Shown: piece after piece, positions 11,432-22,212 of the stretch
Layout of the letters: each line of letters starts with the position of its first letter
How positions within the stretch are numbered: the first letter of the stretch is position 1
Source: Escherichia coli
GTDB taxonomy: Bacteria > Pseudomonadota > Gammaproteobacteria > Enterobacterales > Enterobacteriaceae
Reading direction: 5' to 3' (one strand)
Assembly (NCBI RefSeq): GCF_022846255.1
Contig: NZ_AP025682.1
Length of the DNA stretch: 64,000 nt
Made by a program: the position numbers and the translations under genes
Notes under the pieces: generated by a model
Database searches by the model: none
Told to the model about the DNA's origin: nothing
Seen by the model: only the letters and a program-made list of their open reading frames with translations

Positions 11432-11907
11432 CAGTGGCGTATATTGCCATAGGCAGCAATCTGGCCTCTCCGCTGGAGCAGGTCAATGCTGCCCTGAAAG
11501 CATTAGGCGATATTCCAGAAAGCCGCATTCTTGCTGTTTCTTCGTTTTACCGCACCCCACCGCTGGGGCCGCAAGATCAACCCGATTACTTAAATGCCGC
11601 CGTCGCGCTGAAAACCACTCTTGCCCCTGAAGAGCTACTCAATCACACACAGCGTATCGAATTGCAGCAAGGTCGCGTCCGTAAAGCTGAACGCTGGGGA
11701 CCGCGCACGCTGGATCTCGACATCATGCTGTTTGGTAATGAAGTAATAAATACCGAACGTCTGACCGTTCCGCACTACGATATGAAAAATCGCGGCTTTA
11801 TGCTGTGGCCACTGTTTGAAATTGCGCCGGAATTGGTATTTCCTGATGGCTTATCATTAGTTGAAGCTCTACAGGCAAAAGGCTTTAATGAATTAGATAA
11901 GTGGTAA
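11428..11907 (+). CDS. folK: 2-amino-4-hydroxy-6-hydroxymethyldihydropteridine pyrophosphokinase (HPPK)
   Basis: ORF 11428..11907 (159 aa) [31 protein letters not shown]; start overlaps pcnB stop (ATGA). Confidence 0.9.
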
Positions 11908-12269
11908 TTATTATTCGTGTGAATATAAATATATTCCGAAAATAACCATAAACCATTGCAAATAATAATATAATTAATATAAATAAAAACACAGAAAATA
12001 TAATATACCTTCCCGAAATTCTAATTCCATACACCACCCCCTTAATTTTTTAAAGTTAATTTTACTAATTTTCATATTTAGTAAAATTAACTTCCATATG
12101 TCATGGCATTATGCAAAATAGCTGTCCTAATGATGAATGAATGTAATACTTAGTAAAAAACAAACAAACATCATTAACAAAGTAACGTTCAGTTACATGG
12201 CATTGCATCAAAATCTCATCATCATGCAATGCTGTTATCTGCTTTATGGAATATTACTCAAGGATTTTT
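11908..12269. promoter_or_regulatory. Strongly AT-rich leader upstream of the yad fimbrial operon (likely promoter and nucleoid-protein silencing region)
   Basis: ~360 bp of highly AT-rich sequence with A/T tracts between folK stop and yadN start, unlike the surrounding GC-balanced coding DNA. Confidence 0.4.
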
Positions 12270-12860
12270 ATGTCTAAAAAATTAGGTTTTGCGCTGTCCG
12301 GTATTATGTTGGCAATGGCTGCTGGTACTGCATTTGCTGCTAACGATATGGACGGCGGTCAATTAAATATTAGCGGTCTGGTCGTTGATAACACTTGTGA
12401 AGCTCGTGTTGATGGCGGTAACAAAGACGGTCTGATCCTGCTGCAAACCGCTACTGTTGCTGAAATTACTGATGGTGTACTGGATACCACTGTAGGCGCT
12501 AAAGCTAAACCATTCAGCATTACTATTGACTGCAGCAAAGCTAACCCGGCTCCGGGTACTACTGCAAAAATGACCTTCGGTTCTGTTTTCTTTGGTAACA
12601 GCAAAGGAACACTGAACAACGACATGTCTATTAACACCCCGTCTGACGGCGTAAATATCGCTCTGCACAATATTGAAGGTTCTACTATTAAACAGGTTCA
12701 GGTCAATAATCCGGGTGATGTTTACAGCAAAACTCTGGATTCAACGTCTAAATCTGCAACCTACGATTTTAAAGCATCCTATGTTCGTGCGGATGCAAGC
12801 AAAGCAGCTACTGCCGGTTATGTAAAAACCAACTCAGCATACACCATTACTTACCAGTAA
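12270..12860 (+). CDS. yadN: Fimbrial major subunit (chaperone-usher pilin)
   Basis: Within ORF 12246..12860; ATG 12270 preceded by AAGGA; signal peptide [23 protein letters not shown]; pilin-like C-terminus ...[10 protein letters not shown]; first gene of operon. Confidence 0.75.
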
Positions 12861-12968
12861 ATATCAACCACTTAAATTGATCGGGTGAATATATACAGGG
12901 AATAACATCAAATATTTTTACTTTTGATAATTATTCCCTGTTTTAATTAATTCTGTAAGGAATGGTTT

Positions 12969-13709
12969 ATGTTTTTTAATACTAAACATACCGCAGCATT
13001 GTGCTTAGCGAGCTGTATGGCTTTTAGCTCATCAGCTATTGCAGACATCGTAATTTCAGGTACACGCGTAGTTTATAAAAGCGAACAAAAAAGCGTCAAT
13101 GTACGTCTGGAAAATAAAGGCAATAACCCATTGCTGGTTCAGAGTTGGTTAGATACTGGAGATGATAACGCTGAACCAGGCAGTATTACTGTCCCCTTTA
13201 CCGCTACGCCGCCAGTATCACGTATTGATGCTAAACGTGGCCAAACAATCAAACTGATGTACACCGCCAGCAGTGCTCTGCCAAAAGACAGAGAAAGTGT
13301 GTTCTGGTTTAACGTACTGGAAGTACCTCCAAAACCCGATGCAGCAAAAGCAGCAAACCAAAGCCTGCTACAACTGGCATTTCGCACACGTATAAAACTG
13401 TTCTATCGCCCGGAAGGATTGAGTGGAATTTCATCTGATGCACCATTGGCTCTGAAGTGGTCCTGGGCAACATCTGAAGGCAAAGCAGCATTACGCGTTG
13501 ATAACCCTACGCCCTACTATGTCTCTTTTAGCAGTGGTGATTTAGAAGCCAATGGCAAACGCTATCCCCTGGATATGACAATGATTGCGCCGTTCAGTAA
13601 CGACGTCATCAAGGTAAATGGGATGAGTGGCAGAACAAGCTCTGCAAAAGTGCATTTTTTCGCCATTAATGATTTTGGTGGATCTATTGAAGGCAACGCC
13701 AACCTTTAA
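12969..13709 (+). CDS. yadV: Periplasmic fimbrial chaperone (PapD-like)
   Basis: ORF 12969..13709 (246 aa); signal peptide; PapD-family sequence (NPLLVQSWLD..., RESVFWFNV...). Confidence 0.8.
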   Translation: MFFNTKHTAALCLASCMAFSSSAIADIVISGTRVVYKSEQKSVNVRLENKGNNPLLVQSWLDTGDDNAEPGSITVPFTATPPVSRIDAKRGQTIKLMYTASSALPKDRESVFWFNVLEVPPKPDAAKAANQSLLQLAFRTRIKLFYRPEGLSGISSDAPLALKWSWATSEGKAALRVDNPTPYYVSFSSGDLEANGKRYPLDMTMIAPFSNDVIKVNGMSGRTSSAKVHFFAINDFGGSIEGNANL

Positions 13710-13743
13710 TCTGGCAAGGATATAACACAGCAGGAAGCAGAAC

Positions 13744-16332
13744 GTGACTATTAAATCTACTAATCACCTTACCCACATCGCCACGTTTTGCGCTCTGCTG
13801 TATAGCAATAGTGCTTTATGCGCTGAACTCGTCGAATATGACCATACATTTCTGATGGGAAAGGATGCTTCAAATATCGACCTTAGTCGGTATACAGAAG
13901 GCAACCCGACACTACCTGGCATTTACGATGTCAGTGTGTATGTTAACGATCAACCCATCATGAGCCAAAGCATTGCTTTTACTGTTATTGAAGGTAAAAA
14001 GAACGCTCAGGCCTGCATTACGCAGAAAAATTTATTGCAATTTCATATCAGTTCACCAGACAAGAATAGCGAAAAAGCCATTTTGCTTAAGCGAGACGAC
14101 GATCTTGGTGATTGCCTCAATCTGGCTGAAATGATCCCTCAATCATCCATTCGTTACGATGTTAACGATCAACGCCTGGATATCGACGTCCCCCAGGCAT
14201 GGATTATGAAGAATTATCAAAACTATGTTGATCCCTCTTTGTGGGAAAATGGCATTAATGCAGCCATGCTTTCCTACAACCTCAACGGATATCACAGTGA
14301 AAGTCCAGGCAGAACAAATGACAGTATCTACGCGGCATTCAACGGTGGGATAAACTTAGGTGCCTGGCGGTTACGTGCCTCGGGTAACTACAACTGGATG
14401 ACCAATGTCCATAGCGATTACGATTTTCAGAATCGCTATTTACAACGCGATCTTGCGTCACTACGTTCACAACTGGTTATTGGTGAATCTTACACAACCG
14501 GCGAAACCTTCGATTCAGTCAGTATTCGCGGTATTCGTTTATACAGTGACAGTCGAATGCTGCCTCCGGTATTAGCCAGTTTTGCGCCAATCATTCATGG
14601 CGTAGCGAATACCAATGCCAAAGTAACCGTTATGCAAAATGGTTATAAGATCTATGAAACGACGGTGCCGCCAGGAGCTTTTACCATTGACGATCTTAGC
14701 CCATCAGGTTATGGCAGCGATCTCATTGTGACTATCGAAGAAGCTGATGGCACAAAACGGACGTTCTCCCAGCCATTTTCATCTGTTGTGCAAATGCTGC
14801 GCCCTGGCGTTGGTCGCTGGGATATTAGCGCCGGTCAGGTTTTAAAAGACAGTATCCAGGATGAGCCTAATTTATTTCAAGCCAGCTACTACTATGGTTT
14901 GAATAACTACCTGACAGGATATACCGGTATTCAGCTAACTGATAATAACTATACCGCCGGATTGCTGGGGCTTGGTATGAATACCCCCGTGGGGGCTTTT
15001 TCTGTCGATGTTACTCACTCAAATGTCAGCATTCCGGATGATAAAACCTATCAAGGACAAAGCTACCGTATTTCCTGGAACAAGTTATTTGAAAATACCA
15101 GTACATCATTAAATATCGCGGCCTATCGCTACTCCACCCAGCATTATCTGGGCCTCAATGATGCGCTGACGCTGATTGATGAAGTAGAACATCCTGAGCA
15201 AGATCTTGAGCCTAAATCCATGCGCAATTACTCGCGCATGAAAAATCAGGTCACGGTCAGTATCAACCAACCGCTGAAATTTGAGAAAAAGGATTACGGT
15301 TCATTTTATCTCTCGGGAAGCTGGTCAGATTACTGGGCCTCCGGGCAAAACAGTACTAATTACTCTATTGGTTATAGCAATAGTGCGTCCTGGGGCAGTT
15401 ACAGTATCAGTGCTCAACGTTCGTTGAATGAAGATGGTCAAACCGACGATAGCATTTATCTCAGCTTCACGATTCCAATAGAAAATTTACTGGGTACGGA
15501 ACACCGCAGCTCCGGCTTCCAGAGTATTGATACACAATTAAACAGCGACTTTAAGGGTAATAACCAACTCAATATCAGCAGTAGTGGTTACAGCGATACC
15601 AATCGTATCAGCTACAGCGTAAACACGGGTTATATGATGAATAAATCCAGTGATGACCTGAGTTATATCGGCGGTTATGCCAGTTATGAATCGCCGTGGG
15701 GAACGCTGTCAGGTTCAGCCTCAGCAAGCAGTGATAATAGTCGCCAATTCTCACTCAATACTGATGGTGGATTTGTGTTACATAGCGGCGGGCTGACGTT
15801 CAGTAATGACAGTTTTAGTGATTCCGACGCTCTGGCTGTCATTCAGGCGCCAGGAGCAAAAGGCGCTCGTATTAACTACGGAAACAGCACCGTAGACCGC
15901 TGGGGTTATGGTGTGACCAGCGCCCTTTCGCCATACCATGAAAACCGTATCGCACTGGACATTAACGATCTGGAAAACGATGTTGAATTGAAAAGCACCA
16001 GTACTGTCGCCGTCCCGCGCCAGGGAGCCGTCGTCTTTGCTGATTTTGAAACAGTTCAGGGACAATCGGCAATTATGAATATCGTGCGAAGCGATGGTAA
16101 AAATATTCCATTTGCAGCGGATATTTATGATGAACAAAACAATATCATCGGCAACGTAGGTCAGGGTGGTCAGGCCTTTGTTCGCGGTATCGGGCAGGAA
16201 GGAAATATACGAATTACCTGGATTGAAGAGGGCAAACCAGTCAGTTGTTTTGCTCATTACCAACAAAACACGACATCAGAAAAAATAGCACAATCTATTA
16301 TTCTTAACGGGCTTCGTTGTCAGATACAGTAA
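13744..16332 (+). CDS. htrE: Fimbrial outer-membrane usher
   Basis: ORF 13744..16332 (862 aa, GTG start); usher-family sequence with C-terminal ...LNGLRCQIQ; positioned after the chaperone gene. Confidence 0.85.
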   Translation: MTIKSTNHLTHIATFCALLYSNSALCAELVEYDHTFLMGKDASNIDLSRYTEGNPTLPGIYDVSVYVNDQPIMSQSIAFTVIEGKKNAQACITQKNLLQFHISSPDKNSEKAILLKRDDDLGDCLNLAEMIPQSSIRYDVNDQRLDIDVPQAWIMKNYQNYVDPSLWENGINAAMLSYNLNGYHSESPGRTNDSIYAAFNGGINLGAWRLRASGNYNWMTNVHSDYDFQNRYLQRDLASLRSQLVIGESYTTGETFDSVSIRGIRLYSDSRMLPPVLASFAPIIHGVANTNAKVTVMQNGYKIYETTVPPGAFTIDDLSPSGYGSDLIVTIEEADGTKRTFSQPFSSVVQMLRPGVGRWDISAGQVLKDSIQDEPNLFQASYYYGLNNYLTGYTGIQLTDNNYTAGLLGLGMNTPVGAFSVDVTHSNVSIPDDKTYQGQSYRISWNKLFENTSTSLNIAAYRYSTQHYLGLNDALTLIDEVEHPEQDLEPKSMRNYSRMKNQVTVSINQPLKFEKKDYGSFYLSGSWSDYWASGQNSTNYSIGYSNSASWGSYSISAQRSLNEDGQTDDSIYLSFTIPIENLLGTEHRSSGFQSIDTQLNSDFKGNNQLNISSSGYSDTNRISYSVNTGYMMNKSSDDLSYIGGYASYESPWGTLSGSASASSDNSRQFSLNTDGGFVLHSGGLTFSNDSFSDSDALAVIQAPGAKGARINYGNSTVDRWGYGVTSALSPYHENRIALDINDLENDVELKSTSTVAVPRQGAVVFADFETVQGQSAIMNIVRSDGKNIPFAADIYDEQNNIIGNVGQGGQAFVRGIGQEGNIRITWIEEGKPVSCFAHYQQNTTSEKIAQSIILNGLRCQIQ

Positions 16333-16348
16333 CCACAAGGGACTTCCA

Positions 16349-16915
16349 ATGATAAAAATCACACCACATAAAATAACAATACTCATGGGACTATTGTTAT
16401 CGCCTTCGGTATTTGCAACGGATGTTAATGTCGATTTTACCGCTACCGTGAAAGCAACAACCTGTAATATTACACTTACCGGAACTAATGTCACTGATAA
16501 TGGAAATGATAAGTACACCTTAGTTATTCCCTCGATGGGAATGGATAAAATAGCCAATAAAACAGCACAATCTGAAGCCAACTTTAAATTGGTAGCCAAT
16601 GGATGCAGCAGTGGAATTAGCTGGATTGATACAACCCTGACAGGAAATCAATCAGGAAGTTCACCCGCGCTAATTATCCCCCTGGCCAGTGATACAACCT
16701 CCACCACAAGCTATATCGGAATGGGATTTAAAAGGAAGGCGACTTCAGGCGATACATTTCTGAAACCCAATAGCACAGAATACATACGCTGGAGTGCATC
16801 AGAAATTAGCACCGATGGACTTGAGATGACTGTCGCACTGCGTGAAACAAGTGTAGGGCAAGGTGTTCCAGGCAAGTTTCGCGCACTGGCAACTTTTAAC
16901 TTCAGCTATCAATAA
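16349..16915 (+). CDS. yadM: Fimbrial minor subunit
   Basis: ORF 16349..16915 (188 aa); AAGGGA 6 nt upstream; signal peptide; C-terminal FNFSYQ pilin-like strand. Confidence 0.7.
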   Translation: MIKITPHKITILMGLLLSPSVFATDVNVDFTATVKATTCNITLTGTNVTDNGNDKYTLVIPSMGMDKIANKTAQSEANFKLVANGCSSGISWIDTTLTGNQSGSSPALIIPLASDTTSTTSYIGMGFKRKATSGDTFLKPNSTEYIRWSASEISTDGLEMTVALRETSVGQGVPGKFRALATFNFSYQ

Positions 16916-16929
16916 CAAGGATGACAATG

Positions 16930-17535
16930 ATGATATTAAAAAAATTATGTTATGGATTATCGGGTAGTCTATTTCTGGCTTCATCACTGTTTACCATTCC
17001 TTCGCATGCAGCCACTGACAGTATTGGCCTGACTGTTACTACTGACGTAGAAATGGGTACCTGTACATCAACGTTGACTGATGACGGTACAACTAAAATT
17101 TCCACCATCAATTTCGGTGATGTATATATTTCTGAAATTAATGCCGAAACTAAAATTAAAACCTTCAAATTACAGTTCAAAGACTGTGCGGGGATTCCCG
17201 GGAAAAAGGCCAAAATAAAATTGACTCCACGAGCATTATGTGAAGGTAATTCTAATAATGGTCCTGGATTTGCTAACGCATCAACGGCAACAGCAAAAGC
17301 AGCGGCGGTCGCCGTTGAGGTCTGGAGCACATCTACGCCAGGTAAGAACGGCGCTAAACAATTCAGTTGTGTCACCCCCGCAACAGAAGAAGTCAGTATT
17401 GCTAATGCGACAGGCAGCAATGTTGTCGATTACCCAATGAGTGCGGTGTTGGTGGTCGCAAAAGATAAAACTGTCACAAATGTCACTGCGGGTGATTTCA
17501 CTGCCCCGGCAACATTCACCGTGACTTATAACTAA
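16930..17535 (+). CDS. yadL: Fimbrial minor subunit
   Basis: ORF track 16921..17535; three in-frame ATGs (16921, 16927, 16930) after AAGGA at 16916-16920; 16930 gives 201 aa; signal peptide; C-terminal FTVTYN. Confidence 0.65.
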   Translation: MILKKLCYGLSGSLFLASSLFTIPSHAATDSIGLTVTTDVEMGTCTSTLTDDGTTKISTINFGDVYISEINAETKIKTFKLQFKDCAGIPGKKAKIKLTPRALCEGNSNNGPGFANASTATAKAAAVAVEVWSTSTPGKNGAKQFSCVTPATEEVSIANATGSNVVDYPMSAVLVVAKDKTVTNVTAGDFTAPATFTVTYN

Positions 17536-17561
17536 CAGGCAGACTGATTCAGGAACTAAAT

Positions 17562-18158
17562 ATGCGTCCCACTCAACGTAATCTGATGAAAAAATCAATT
17601 CTGCTTCTGTCGTTGCTATTCAGCGCCACTTCCCCTGTGGTTGCAGGACAGAATGTTGACATTGTTGCAAATATAAAAAATAACACCTGCCAAAGTGGAA
17701 TCAGCAACAACGGAAATATTGATTTAGGTGTCGTTGGCGTGGGCGATTTTACCGGAAACATTTCAGCCGAAAATTATCACCCCGGTGGAAAAGAGTTCAC
17801 TATTACAGTACAGGACTGCACACTTCAGGGCACAGGGAATGTGTTAAATCAGTTACATATTGATTTTCGCGCACTCAGTGGCGTAATGGCGACAGGTTCC
17901 AGTCAAATATTCGCCAATGAAGACAACGCCGGGGCTAAAAATGTTGGGGTAGTTATATTTTCTATTCAGGACCCGGCAAATACCTTCAACGTTCTTGGTG
18001 CCACTGGTAGCTCACGTTCCGTTTATCCGGTCATGTCATCAGCACTAAATAATTCATCCTGGAAATTTAGTACCCGAATGCAAAAAATCGATCCGGCGCT
18101 GAATGTCACCTCTGGCCCACTGATAAGCCATGTGTTAGTGGATATCTACTACGAATAA
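17562..18158 (+). CDS. yadK: Fimbrial minor subunit
   Basis: ORF 17562..18158 (198 aa); AGGAA upstream; signal peptide; C-terminal ...HVLVDIYYE. Confidence 0.7.
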
Positions 18159-18208
18159 CAGACAAAGTGTCTGCAAGTATTATCTTGCAGCATGACAATG
18201 GAGTAAAA

Positions 18209-19471
18209 ATGAAGACATTCTTCAGATACTTTCTTTTTTTAGCACTATGCTCTTGTTGTTATACAGCAAGCGCCGGCATCGATGATCACGTCGGCTATAT
18301 TGTTGGGAATGATTACGGTGTTGGGCCTGGAGACCAAAAATGGCGTGAGGCAGGTCCCAATGGAGATGTTACCGTCAAATTCCGGTATGGATCAGGCACC
18401 AATAATTTAGTTTTTTATAAACCAACCCAACTTGGCCCAACCGGGGTGTCATTAAAATGGGAGCAGTTAGATTCCGCTTCGGGTAGAGGTTTCCTTTACT
18501 GTAACAGAAGTAGTAACTCAAGTGGCGAACCAATGTCTATTGAACATAAAATGGTTGATTCCGGTAAAAGTTATGGCGGACATAAACTCTTTGAGACATC
18601 TGTTCCAGGTCTGTATTATACATTGGCAATATCAAACATTTGGTCAGCATATACATCTACCAATATCAACTCATCAGGCATATATATTGGCGATTCTACG
18701 GACCAAACTTTTTACTGGCGTGGCGAAAGTGAGCAAACCCTATATCGGTCTTGCAACAATGCAAATACAAAAAATAAATATTGGGCCGTTGGTGGCGTTA
18801 TGCAAACGCTCACGATTGAATTTTATACCGATACCAACTTTAACCCGACAACGAATCAACGGGTAACATTGTCCAAAACAGATGGTTACCTCTACTCATT
18901 CAAAGCATATGGTGCTGGCGTTGGTATCAAGAGTTATTTTCTTAAAATCGACTTTGACCTGACAGATATCGTATTAACCAACCCCACCTGCTTTACTGCT
19001 GTACTTACCGGAAAATCAGTAAGTGGTTCGACGGTAAAAATGGGAGAATATGCACCAGGACAGATAAAAAATGGCGCGACTCCGGTTCCTTTTGATATTT
19101 CTCTCAAAAACTGTGTTCGCGTTGGCGATATAGAGACAAAGCTATCTTCAGGGAAGTTAGGTACAGAAAACAAGCAACTCCTGGGTAACACACTCACTGG
19201 AAGCGACACAGCAAAAGGCGTTGGGGTATTGATTGAAGGATTAGAAAACAGTAAAAGTGCCTTAATGATACTGAAACCTAATGATCCAAGTTCTGTTTAT
19301 AAAGATAATACGGGTCAGACTCAGGATAACGATTCAGATGCGATTTACCCGGAAGCTGACGGTATAACTTATCCACTTCATTTCCAGGCTACATTAAAAC
19401 AAGACGGTAATATTGCTATAGAACCGGGGGATTTTAAAGCCACCAGCACTTTTCAGGTTACCTACCCCTGA
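18209..19471 (+). CDS. yadC: Fimbrial tip adhesin-like subunit
   Basis: Within ORF 18167..19471; ATG 18209 after GGAG; signal peptide [22 protein letters not shown]; two-domain size (420 aa) with pilin-like C-terminus ...TSTFQVTYP. Confidence 0.7.
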
Positions 19472-19582
19472 TAACACTATTGCACCGCCAGACAATGGCG
19501 GTGCGATACGGATAAATCATTGCCCCCACCAATGTGACTGATAAAATGCGAGACAGCACAACATCATTTATCAGGATACGCT

Positions 19583-20377
19583 ATGAAACCAACCACGATT
19601 GCTTCATTGCAGAAATGCAAGCAGGACAAAAAACGTTTCGCAACCATCACCGCTTACGACTATAGCTTCGCAAAACTGTTTGCCGAAGAAGGACTTAACG
19701 TCATGCTGGTAGGCGACTCACTGGGCATGACGGTTCAGGGGCATGACTCCACGCTACCGGTTACCGTTGCCGATATCGCCTATCACACCGCCGCTGTGCG
19801 TCGCGGCGCGCCAAACTGCCTTCTGCTGGCTGACCTGCCATTTATGGCGTATGCCACGCCGGAACAAGCCTTTGAAAACGCCGCAACGGTAATGCGTGCC
19901 GGAGCCAACATGGTCAAAATTGAAGGAGGTGAGTGGCTGGTGGACACCGTACAAATGCTGACCGAACGTGCCGTTCCAGTTTGTGGTCATTTAGGCCTAA
20001 CCCCACAGTCAGTGAATATTTTCGGTGGCTACAAAGTCCAGGGGCGCGGCGATGAAGCGGGCGATCGACTGCTCAGCGATGCATTAGCCTTAGAAGCTGC
20101 TGGGGCACAACTGCTGGTACTGGAGTGCGTGCCGGTTGAACTGGCAAAACGCATTACCGAAGCACTGGCGATCCCGGTTATCGGTATTGGCGCAGGCAAC
20201 GTCACTGACGGGCAAATTCTCGTGATGCACGACGCGTTCGGCATTACCGGCGGTCATATTCCTAAATTCGCCAAAAACTTCCTCGCCGAAACGGGCGACA
20301 TCCGCGCGGCTGTGCGGCAGTATATGGCTGAAGTGGAGTCCGGCGTTTACCCGGGCGAAGAACACAGTTTCCATTAA
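19583..20377 (+). CDS. panB: 3-methyl-2-oxobutanoate hydroxymethyltransferase
   Basis: ORF 19583..20377 (264 aa) [33 protein letters not shown]. Confidence 0.93.
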
Positions 20378-21240: not shown

Positions 21241-21244
21241 TGCT

Positions 21245-21283
21245 TAACTGGCGCTACGGCTGATGGCGCCAGTTATTCATTGC
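21245..21283. terminator. Bidirectional intrinsic terminator between convergent panC and yadD
   Basis: Perfect 10-bp stem TAACTGGCGC / GCGCCAGTTA (21245-21254 / 21266-21275) with 11-nt loop, followed by TTCATT. Confidence 0.6.
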
Positions 21284-21321
21284 CACGTTATCTGTAAGCA
21301 ATTATTCATATCGTAGACTAC

Positions 21322-22212
21322 TTAGTTAGAGTTAATTAGCTTATCAATCTCTGCAAGAGATAAAGCTGTCACCTCTGCAACGTCTTCCCGAGACATTCCT
21401 TTACTCAGAAGACGCAGGGCGAATTCCTGACTTACTTCCTGTCTTCCCTGCTGAATCCCCTTCTCTTCAAACCACTGCGCCAGCGTCATCATAGACTCCC
21501 CTCCCGTTTCCCTGTCTCTCACCACACCATAAAACAAATCCGCTTGTTCAGTATGACCGCGTTGCAGCATATAGTTTTGCATGGCAACTAACTGACTTCC
21601 GCTAGTGTACCCTTCGTCAATCAGCGTGACCAGTTGCTCCAGCAATAACATTAAGTCGCGCTGGCGAATATGTTTTTGCAGCAGTTCGAGAATCGCAATC
21701 CGCCGATGTTGCATGATTTCGTCATCCGGTGTGATAGTGATATCCACCAGCGGGAAAGGACTGTTATAGACGCGTCGCGCCAGCTCCGGCGAGTAAAACA
21801 TATCAAACCAGCACATTGAGAGCGGATAAGGTGTGGCCTCGCCCTGATAAAACAGAATCGGCACCACCAGCGGCAGCTTATCGTGATCCGCCTCCAGATG
21901 CCGGTGCATGGCGGCAATGGCATAGCGCATCATGCGAAAGGTCATTTTCTTATCCGGCTTGCTTTGATGTTCAATCACCACATGCAAATAACCGGGATTG
22001 CCCTGCATTTGTACGGAATAGAGTACGTCCGTGCTGTGTCCTTTCAGGCTTTCCTCAATAAAACTCCCCGACTCAAGATGCAGCGTGTCGAGGTCACACA
22101 GTTCGCGTAGCTCCGCTGGCAAATGGATATCCAGAAAGTCGCGAGCCGTTTCCGCATGCATTAAAAATTGTTTAAACACCGCATCATGCGGTGTGGTACT
22201 CGGTGCATCCAT
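21322..22212 (-). CDS. rpnC: Recombination-promoting nuclease RpnC (Rpn / transposase_31 / PD-(D/E)XK family)
   Basis: ORF 21322..22212 (296 aa) MDAPSTTPHDAVFKQFLMHAETARDFLDIHLPAELRE...; recognised as YadD/RpnC; sits between panC and panD as in E. coli. Confidence 0.8.
   Translation of the reverse strand: MDAPSTTPHDAVFKQFLMHAETARDFLDIHLPAELRELCDLDTLHLESGSFIEESLKGHSTDVLYSVQMQGNPGYLHVVIEHQSKPDKKMTFRMMRYAIAAMHRHLEADHDKLPLVVPILFYQGEATPYPLSMCWFDMFYSPELARRVYNSPFPLVDITITPDDEIMQHRRIAILELLQKHIRQRDLMLLLEQLVTLIDEGYTSGSQLVAMQNYMLQRGHTEQADLFYGVVRDRETGGESMMTLAQWFEEKGIQQGRQEVSQEFALRLLSKGMSREDVAEVTALSLAEIDKLINSN

Follow-up and report, generated by a model that had tools for sequence, protein, structure and literature searches.

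The yad operon and the yadC reading frame

The window, that is the whole stretch of 64,000 nucleotides of Escherichia coli DNA that was analysed, carries the genes yadN-yadV-htrE-yadM-yadL-yadK-yadC between folK and panB, in an order that matches K-12, STEC299, LF82, CFT073 and EC958 (Table 1). At the nucleotide level the genes from yadN to yadK are 98.5–99.7% identical to those of LF82 and 71–83% identical to those of K-12. With 60–75% nucleotide identity to K-12, yadC is the most divergent gene of the operon. The flanking genes folK, panB, panC and panD are about 92–99% identical to their K-12 counterparts.

Table 1. Features of the yad region, with positions counted from the first nucleotide of the window
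Feature	Position	Strand	Basis
Other genes of the yad chaperone-usher operon (yadN to yadK), LF82/CFT073 (B2) type	12270–18158	+	ORFs, nucleotide identity, K-12 gene order
yadN	12270–12860	+	
yadV/ecpD	12969–13709	+	
htrE	13744–16332	+	
yadM	16349–16915	+	
yadL	16927–17535	+	
yadK	17562–18158	+	
yadC allele, 420-aa Yad tip-adhesin precursor, stop codon included	18209–19471	+	ORF, RefSeq CDS, NF007267, identity to K-12
Predicted signal peptide, residues 1–22	18209–18274	+	Hydrophobic helix 2–17; presumed cleavage after ASA
N-terminal receptor-binding (lectin) domain, about residues 23–257	18275–18979	+	All-beta AlphaFold2 model, Foldseek; LF82/S88-like
C-terminal pilin domain, about residues 258–420	18980–19468	+	PF00419, superposition on FimA/FimF/FimG; EC958/ST131-like
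Best-supported recombination breakpoint, codons 255–260 (gene nt 764–777)	18972–18985	+	Maximum chi-square
STEC299-identical tract, 2,070 bp (yadK 3′ end, yadC, panB 5′ end)	17857–19926	+	Mismatch map

The yadC gene lies within a plus-strand open reading frame, which begins with a GTG at 18167 and ends with the stop codon at 19469–19471. An in-frame ATG at 18209 opens a protein of 420 residues starting with MKTFFRYF, and a GGAG Shine–Dalgarno motif can be read in the sequence about 6 nt upstream of this ATG. The preliminary description had proposed this start and this length, and both are borne out by the reading frame and by an identical RefSeq CDS of STEC299, which has 1263 bp and the same bounds and is annotated as a 420-aa 'fimbrial-like adhesin' (WP_137501335.1). 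The length of about 412 residues that it gave for K-12 YadC was correct as well (MG1655 yadC, b0135, 1239 bp, 412 aa), and so was the identification of the product as the YadC tip adhesin: yadK, yadC and panB follow each other as in K-12, and in a BLASTP comparison the protein matches K-12 YadC from end to end with 252 identities in 424 positions (59%, E = 6e-172). Since a match of this length and significance is found, a chance reading frame is ruled out. A paralogous, non-orthologous adhesin and a pseudogene were also considered, and both were rejected, since the reading frame is intact, the locus is syntenic and the scaffold residues are conserved.

The difference between 420 and 412 residues might be regarded as an annotation artefact of start-codon choice, the more so as members of the same allele family have been deposited as proteins of 420, 428 and 434 aa, which correspond to ATG 18209, TTG 18185 and GTG 18167 in the window. 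For the comparison with K-12 this explanation is hardly credible and can be regarded as refuted. Both lengths are counted from a homologous methionine (MKTFFRY in the window, MKTIFRY in K-12), so the difference of 8 residues is internal to the proteins; it arises from six internal indels and not from the N-terminus, and the Shine–Dalgarno motif precedes ATG 18209. The 'length variation' of yadC in databases mixes true loop indels with choices of start codon, and representative YadC alleles span 411 to 426 aa.

Some further features of the operon were recorded. The intergenic region between folK and yadN (11900–12270), which contains the yad promoter region, is 97% identical to LF82, and about 55–65% of it can be aligned to K-12. 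As this region is LF82-like and poorly alignable to K-12, the H-NS-controlled yad promoter would also be specific for the allele class. A promoter and terminator scan of 11800–19700 gave counts at the expectation from shuffled sequence (18 versus 19.1 and 6 versus 7.0, respectively) and was uninformative on regulation. At 19482–19504, 11 nt past the yadC stop codon, an 8-bp GC-rich hairpin is present (GCACCGCC-AGACAAT-GGCGGTGC) that lacks a T-run and was not called by the terminator scan; it may act as a 3′ stabiliser of the mRNA or as a weak terminator before panB. N-terminal donor-strand extensions are predicted for the minor subunits, namely GQ(N/D)(V/I)D(I/L)VAN(I/V)K in YadK (17562–17680), ATDSIGLTV in YadL (16927–17040) and TD(V/I)NV(D/E)FTATVK in YadM (16349–16450). 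These three motifs are near-invariant between operon types, while the mature subunits are just 70–77% identical.

Family assignment and predicted architecture of YadC

The protein matches the NCBIfam equivalog model NF007267 with 806.4 bits (cutoff 391), with residues 1–420 covering profile positions 9–432 of 432. It also passes NF007268, the model of the K-12 class, at a lower score (575 bits, cutoff 382). K-12 YadC itself scores 885 bits on NF007268 and 658 bits on NF007267. Two classes of YadC are already curated in NCBIfam, since the collection carries two distinct equivalog models. With 59% identity, 420 residues and NF007267 as its best model, the window protein falls outside the K-12 type (NF007268, 412 aa), and these scores assign the allele to the non-K-12 class.

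In Pfam the only domain found is Fimbrial (PF00419, residues 271–419, E = 1.8e-13), and the N-terminal domain is without a Pfam match. Gelsolin scored 18 bits (E = 0.0027), short of its cutoff of 21 bits, and this hit was dismissed as a chance match. A sequence search of the PDB gave no significant match, the best being lectin domains of the UcaD/UclD type with E = 0.2. Modelling with AlphaFold2 on 29 homologs of 35–94% identity gave a mean pLDDT of 86.4. In the model a signal helix precedes two beta domains, of which the first, beta-rich one spans about residues 29–250, and between the two the confidence falls to 80 at residues 251–260. At the N-terminus the model has a hydrophobic helix (residues 2–17) followed by a low-confidence stretch (residues 17–24), and the sequence reads A-S-A at positions 20–22. 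In a Foldseek search against the PDB the full-length model matched FimH, LpfD, CupB6, FocH, PapG and CfaE with E-values down to 3e-9, and the C-terminal portion of about 163 residues could be superposed on FimA, FimF and FimG with TM scores of 0.66–0.78.

Instead of a donor-strand N-terminal extension the protein has a separate beta-rich N-terminal domain, which it combines with a PF00419 pilin domain in the architecture of FimH-like adhesins. In the predicted model the layout of an N-terminal beta-sandwich together with a pilin domain at the C-terminus is the same as in FimH, LpfD and CupB6 (PDB 1qun, 5afo and 5cyl; Foldseek E = 3e-9 to 3e-8), although these proteins share 10–15% sequence identity with the window YadC and the lectin domain of FimH is smaller (about 158 residues versus about 235). 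Among the 29 homologs, down to 35% identity, four cysteines are invariant (Cys98 and Cys182 in the N-terminal domain, Cys261 and Cys302 in the pilin domain) together with 45 other alignment columns. The motif P259-T260-C261 at the start of the pilin domain is invariant as well. A two-domain architecture of YadC has already been described (PMC13245861).

These features suggest how the protein would function. A Sec signal peptide may export YadC, after which the pilin domain, as an incomplete Ig fold, would be completed by a donor strand of the following subunit and so be held at the tip of the fimbria. The N-terminal lectin domain would then be available for binding a receptor. Ligands have been reported for other alleles, namely K-12 and CFT073 YadC: annexin A2, in work that used the CFT073 allele (PMC6921372, cited in PMC13245861), and xylose-containing glycans, as the work of Larsonneur (2016) is cited in PMC13245861.

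Divergence from K-12 and constraint on the gene

K-12 YadC (b0135, NP_414677.1, NF007268) is likewise encoded by the last yad gene, next to panB. It has the same two domains, predicted type of signal peptide and four conserved cysteines as the window protein, and its last 30 residues are near-identical. It differs in its length of 412 aa, in its amino acid identity of 59%, in six indels and in its lower score on NF007267. By domain, the receptor-binding part is about 52% identical and the pilin part 73%. In an alignment of 17 alleles the excess of 8 residues over K-12 is the net result of the six indels. Numbered by residue of the window protein, these are the insertions +GIDD at 23 (immediately behind the predicted signal peptide), +PGDQKW at 40 and +TG at 368, and the deletions −D at 148, −DH at 241 and −Q at 382. 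Four of the six lie in the lectin domain. The larger ones sit in segments where the model is less confident, with mean pLDDT per block of 61 (residues 21–30), 67 (41–50) and 86 and 56 (361–380), which fits a location in surface loops.

The preliminary description had presented the gene as a YadC allele possibly differing in length from the K-12 reference and had set this against the allelic variation common among tip adhesins. That frame was appropriate, and the protein is indeed 8 residues longer than K-12 YadC. As a reading of the allele, however, a length variant is too modest, with about 40% of the residues differing and the gene being an intragenic mosaic. The alignment to K-12 and other alleles that had been proposed as a check showed neither equal length nor near-identity. 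With an identity to K-12 of only 59%, the window protein belongs to another allele class instead of being a mere variant in length.

Compared with K-12, yadC has reached saturation at synonymous sites (dS 1.9 for the N-terminal and 1.3 for the C-terminal domain). Given that the flanking genes have stayed similar to K-12, the yad allele classes are far older than the chromosome that flanks them.

A calculation of dN/dS across the lectin domain had also been proposed. Pairwise Nei–Gojobori estimates, made per domain, range from 0.06 to 0.60 overall and stay below 1 for all allele pairs in either domain, with about 0.12–0.50 for the lectin domain, where the highest values are found for the closest alleles, and about 0.07–0.31 for the pilin domain. 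Gene-wide positive selection was sought with these pairwise estimates in each domain and none was found. As dN/dS stays below 1 throughout, yadC encodes a maintained protein.

A contrary view would be that the allele is decaying or cryptic, its divergence reflecting drift under relaxed constraint instead of the upkeep of an adhesin. H-NS is reported to keep the yad operon silent under laboratory conditions (PMC13245861), copies of yadC or yadK inactivated in other strains are known (yadC is flagged as partial in JNE21-009, an internal stop interrupts yadK in CAVP773, and yadC carries an IS1 insertion in NZ_CM151386), and dN/dS climbs to 0.5 in the closest comparisons of lectin domains. Nevertheless, drift under relaxed constraint is very unlikely, as the reading frame in the window is of full length, dN/dS is below 1 everywhere and 0.1–0.25 at larger distances, the four structural cysteines and the 45 other columns are invariant across the 29 homologs, and the fold is predicted with confidence.

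Mosaic structure of the allele and its interpretation

The similarity of the window yadC to other alleles changes along the gene. The first approximately 765 nt are LF82/S88-like (92.5% nucleotide identity), and the last approximately 500 nt are ST131/EC958-like, with 91.6% identity to EC958 and 79.5% to LF82. When codons 23–262 and codons 263–420 are compared separately, LF82 yadC is 92.5% and 79.5% identical to the window and EC958/ST131 yadC 62.7% and 91.6%, while the yadC genes of RM14723 (97.5% and 99.8%) and PAR (92.9% and 99.8%) stay close in both parts.

The same change is seen at the protein level. The YadC proteins of LF82, S88 and FEX669 (WP_071525847.1, WP_002430800.1) represent the closest common lectin type, with 87–89% amino acid and 92–92.5% nucleotide identity, but their pilin domains are just 72–73% identical to the window in amino acids and about 80% in nucleotides. 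Their C-terminal type reads DY--ETE(D/N)D...GTSQPLHF, and the window type has GITYPLHF in place of GTSQPLHF. EC958 YadC (ST131, WP_000846606.1, the 'EC958 subtype' of PMC13245861) has a pilin domain that is 92% identical in amino acids and shares a characteristic GQ(T/A)QD(N/H)DSDAIYPE loop with the window protein; yet it has 417 residues and a lectin domain of just 59% amino acid identity, and its operon is of another type than that of the window (YadK, for example, 74% aa identity). CFT073 YadC (WP_011076176.1) belongs to the non-K-12 class like the window protein and is accompanied by near-identical minor subunits (YadK 98.5% aa identity), but it has 421 residues and is only 76% identical in the lectin and 74.5% in the pilin domain. 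The nearest neighbours of the lectin and pilin domains are thus incongruent, and an EC958-like pilin domain is mounted on LF82-like shaft genes. Only a few tight types of pilin domain exist (LF82, CFT073 and S88, for example, are at least 95% identical to each other), while the lectin domains that go with them range from 76 to 100% identity.

When LF82 and EC958 were taken as putative parents, a maximum chi-square scan (374 informative sites, 1000 permutations) placed the best-supported breakpoint at codons 255–260. To its left LF82 is matched at 244 sites and EC958 at 18; to its right the counts are 27 and 85. The score of chi2 = 187 was equalled in none of the 1000 permutations, and the position did not change when CFT073 and EC958 were used as parents. 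The breakpoint coincides with the interdomain linker, immediately 5′ of the PTC motif. This pattern of similarities shows that the window yadC is an intragenic mosaic of an LF82/S88-like lectin segment and an EC958/ST131-like pilin segment. Identity to either putative parent does not go beyond about 92% in nucleotides, so the donors would be unsampled or the exchange would be old. The exchange may have run in either direction, and the LF82 type could be the recombinant instead of the window allele.

The comparison with STEC299 bears on the same issue. Over 19 kb the window and STEC299 are 98.06% identical, and within this DNA the identical tract that includes yadC (Table 1) is bordered by clustered differences. 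Its appearance is that of a segment either recently imported by recombination or shared. Despite the identical yadC, yadM is only 79.9% identical in nucleotides and 81.7% in amino acids (188 versus 190 aa), and the usher encoded by htrE has 862 residues in the window versus 866 in STEC299. Among public assemblies, the exact YadC protein of the window accompanies either type of operon.

Alternatively, recombination might have had no part in the divergence from K-12, which would then have arisen in situ through positive selection acting on the lectin domain. Such a process could account for a lectin domain that is far less conserved than the pilin domain, both against K-12 (52% versus 73% aa identity) and across the 911 operons of a published survey (PMC13245861). 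It is nonetheless improbable. No pairwise dN/dS exceeds 1 in either domain, and dS against K-12 is saturated (about 1.3–1.9) whereas the flanking genes are 92–99% identical; moreover, similarity switches abruptly at codons 255–260, the nearest neighbours of the two domains disagree, and the 2,070-bp tract shared with STEC299 lies inside otherwise diverged DNA. We therefore prefer the reading, to which we give a probability of about 90%, that the gene is a functional-looking yadC allele encoding a two-domain Yad tip adhesin of the non-K-12 class, and that it is a mosaic produced by homologous recombination at the yad locus, which would have joined the lectin and pilin segments at the domain junction.

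The allele is rare. With megablast, its family (at least 95% identity) was found in 24 of 5426 complete genomes. An identical gene occurs in one of them, that of STEC299 (marmot, Qinghai); the other 23, which include RM14723 (dog), PAR (cockatoo), mouse isolates and human isolates, are 95.7–98.4% identical, and the next best match reaches only 88%. A more sensitive search recognised yadC in 4296 genomes, mostly at 60–80% identity to the window. The exact 420-aa protein is already deposited at NCBI (e.g. BDH34791.1), where it is found on at least 16 contigs, and the 90% cluster of the window YadC has 136 member sequences. For a nearby 12-kb stretch no RefSeq complete genome was above 99.3% identity. 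A contig of DRR322657 is 100% identical to the window over 17,263 bp.

Much of this diversity is on record. A 2026 study of 911 yad operons in PLoS Pathogens reported nucleotide conservation of the adhesin of 45–100%, a lectin domain less conserved than the pilin domain, allelic variation and recombination of YadC, two B2 subtypes of yad typified by EC958 and CFT073, and repression of the operon by H-NS in laboratory conditions (PMC13245861). In ST410 a yadC allelic replacement was placed at the origin of the clone (PMC6715731). The window allele is a rare combination within this published and curated YadC diversity, and the sole addition made here is a modest one, a rare chimera with its breakpoint on the domain junction. 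Because recombination of yadC has already been published, modularity at the domain junction would refine a known phenomenon and would not be a new one. The allele is a clean example of the recombination described at the yad locus, with little import beyond careful annotation.

A broader interpretation can be considered. The family formed by the window allele, RM14723 and PAR may be a chimera crossed at the lectin/pilin junction, with YadC diversifying in part by shuffling receptor-binding domains onto a few pilin types; we lean slightly towards this proposal. The donor strands of YadK, YadL and YadM hardly vary across operon types, and for this reason exchanges of this kind would be tolerated. 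If the proposal is true, E. coli could switch the receptor specificity of its Yad fimbriae without re-adapting the fimbrial shaft. YadC alleles probably differ in receptor specificity. Yad fimbriae contribute to colonisation of the bladder, the bloodstream, avian hosts and plant surfaces, and the lectin-domain type of a strain would be useful for typing and for anti-adhesion work.

Variation was also noted on the panB side of the operon. Between panC and panD lies rpnC/yadD (21322–22212, minus strand), which encodes a recombination-promoting nuclease of the Rpn family. It has 296 aa in the window and 294, 300, 306 or 314 aa in other strains. The spacer between panC and rpnC extends over 21241–21321, and the rpnC region forms a variable spot adjoining the yad operon: RM14723, EC958 and CFT073 have extra small reading frames or a transposase remnant beside rpnC, and in CFT073 panC is frameshifted.
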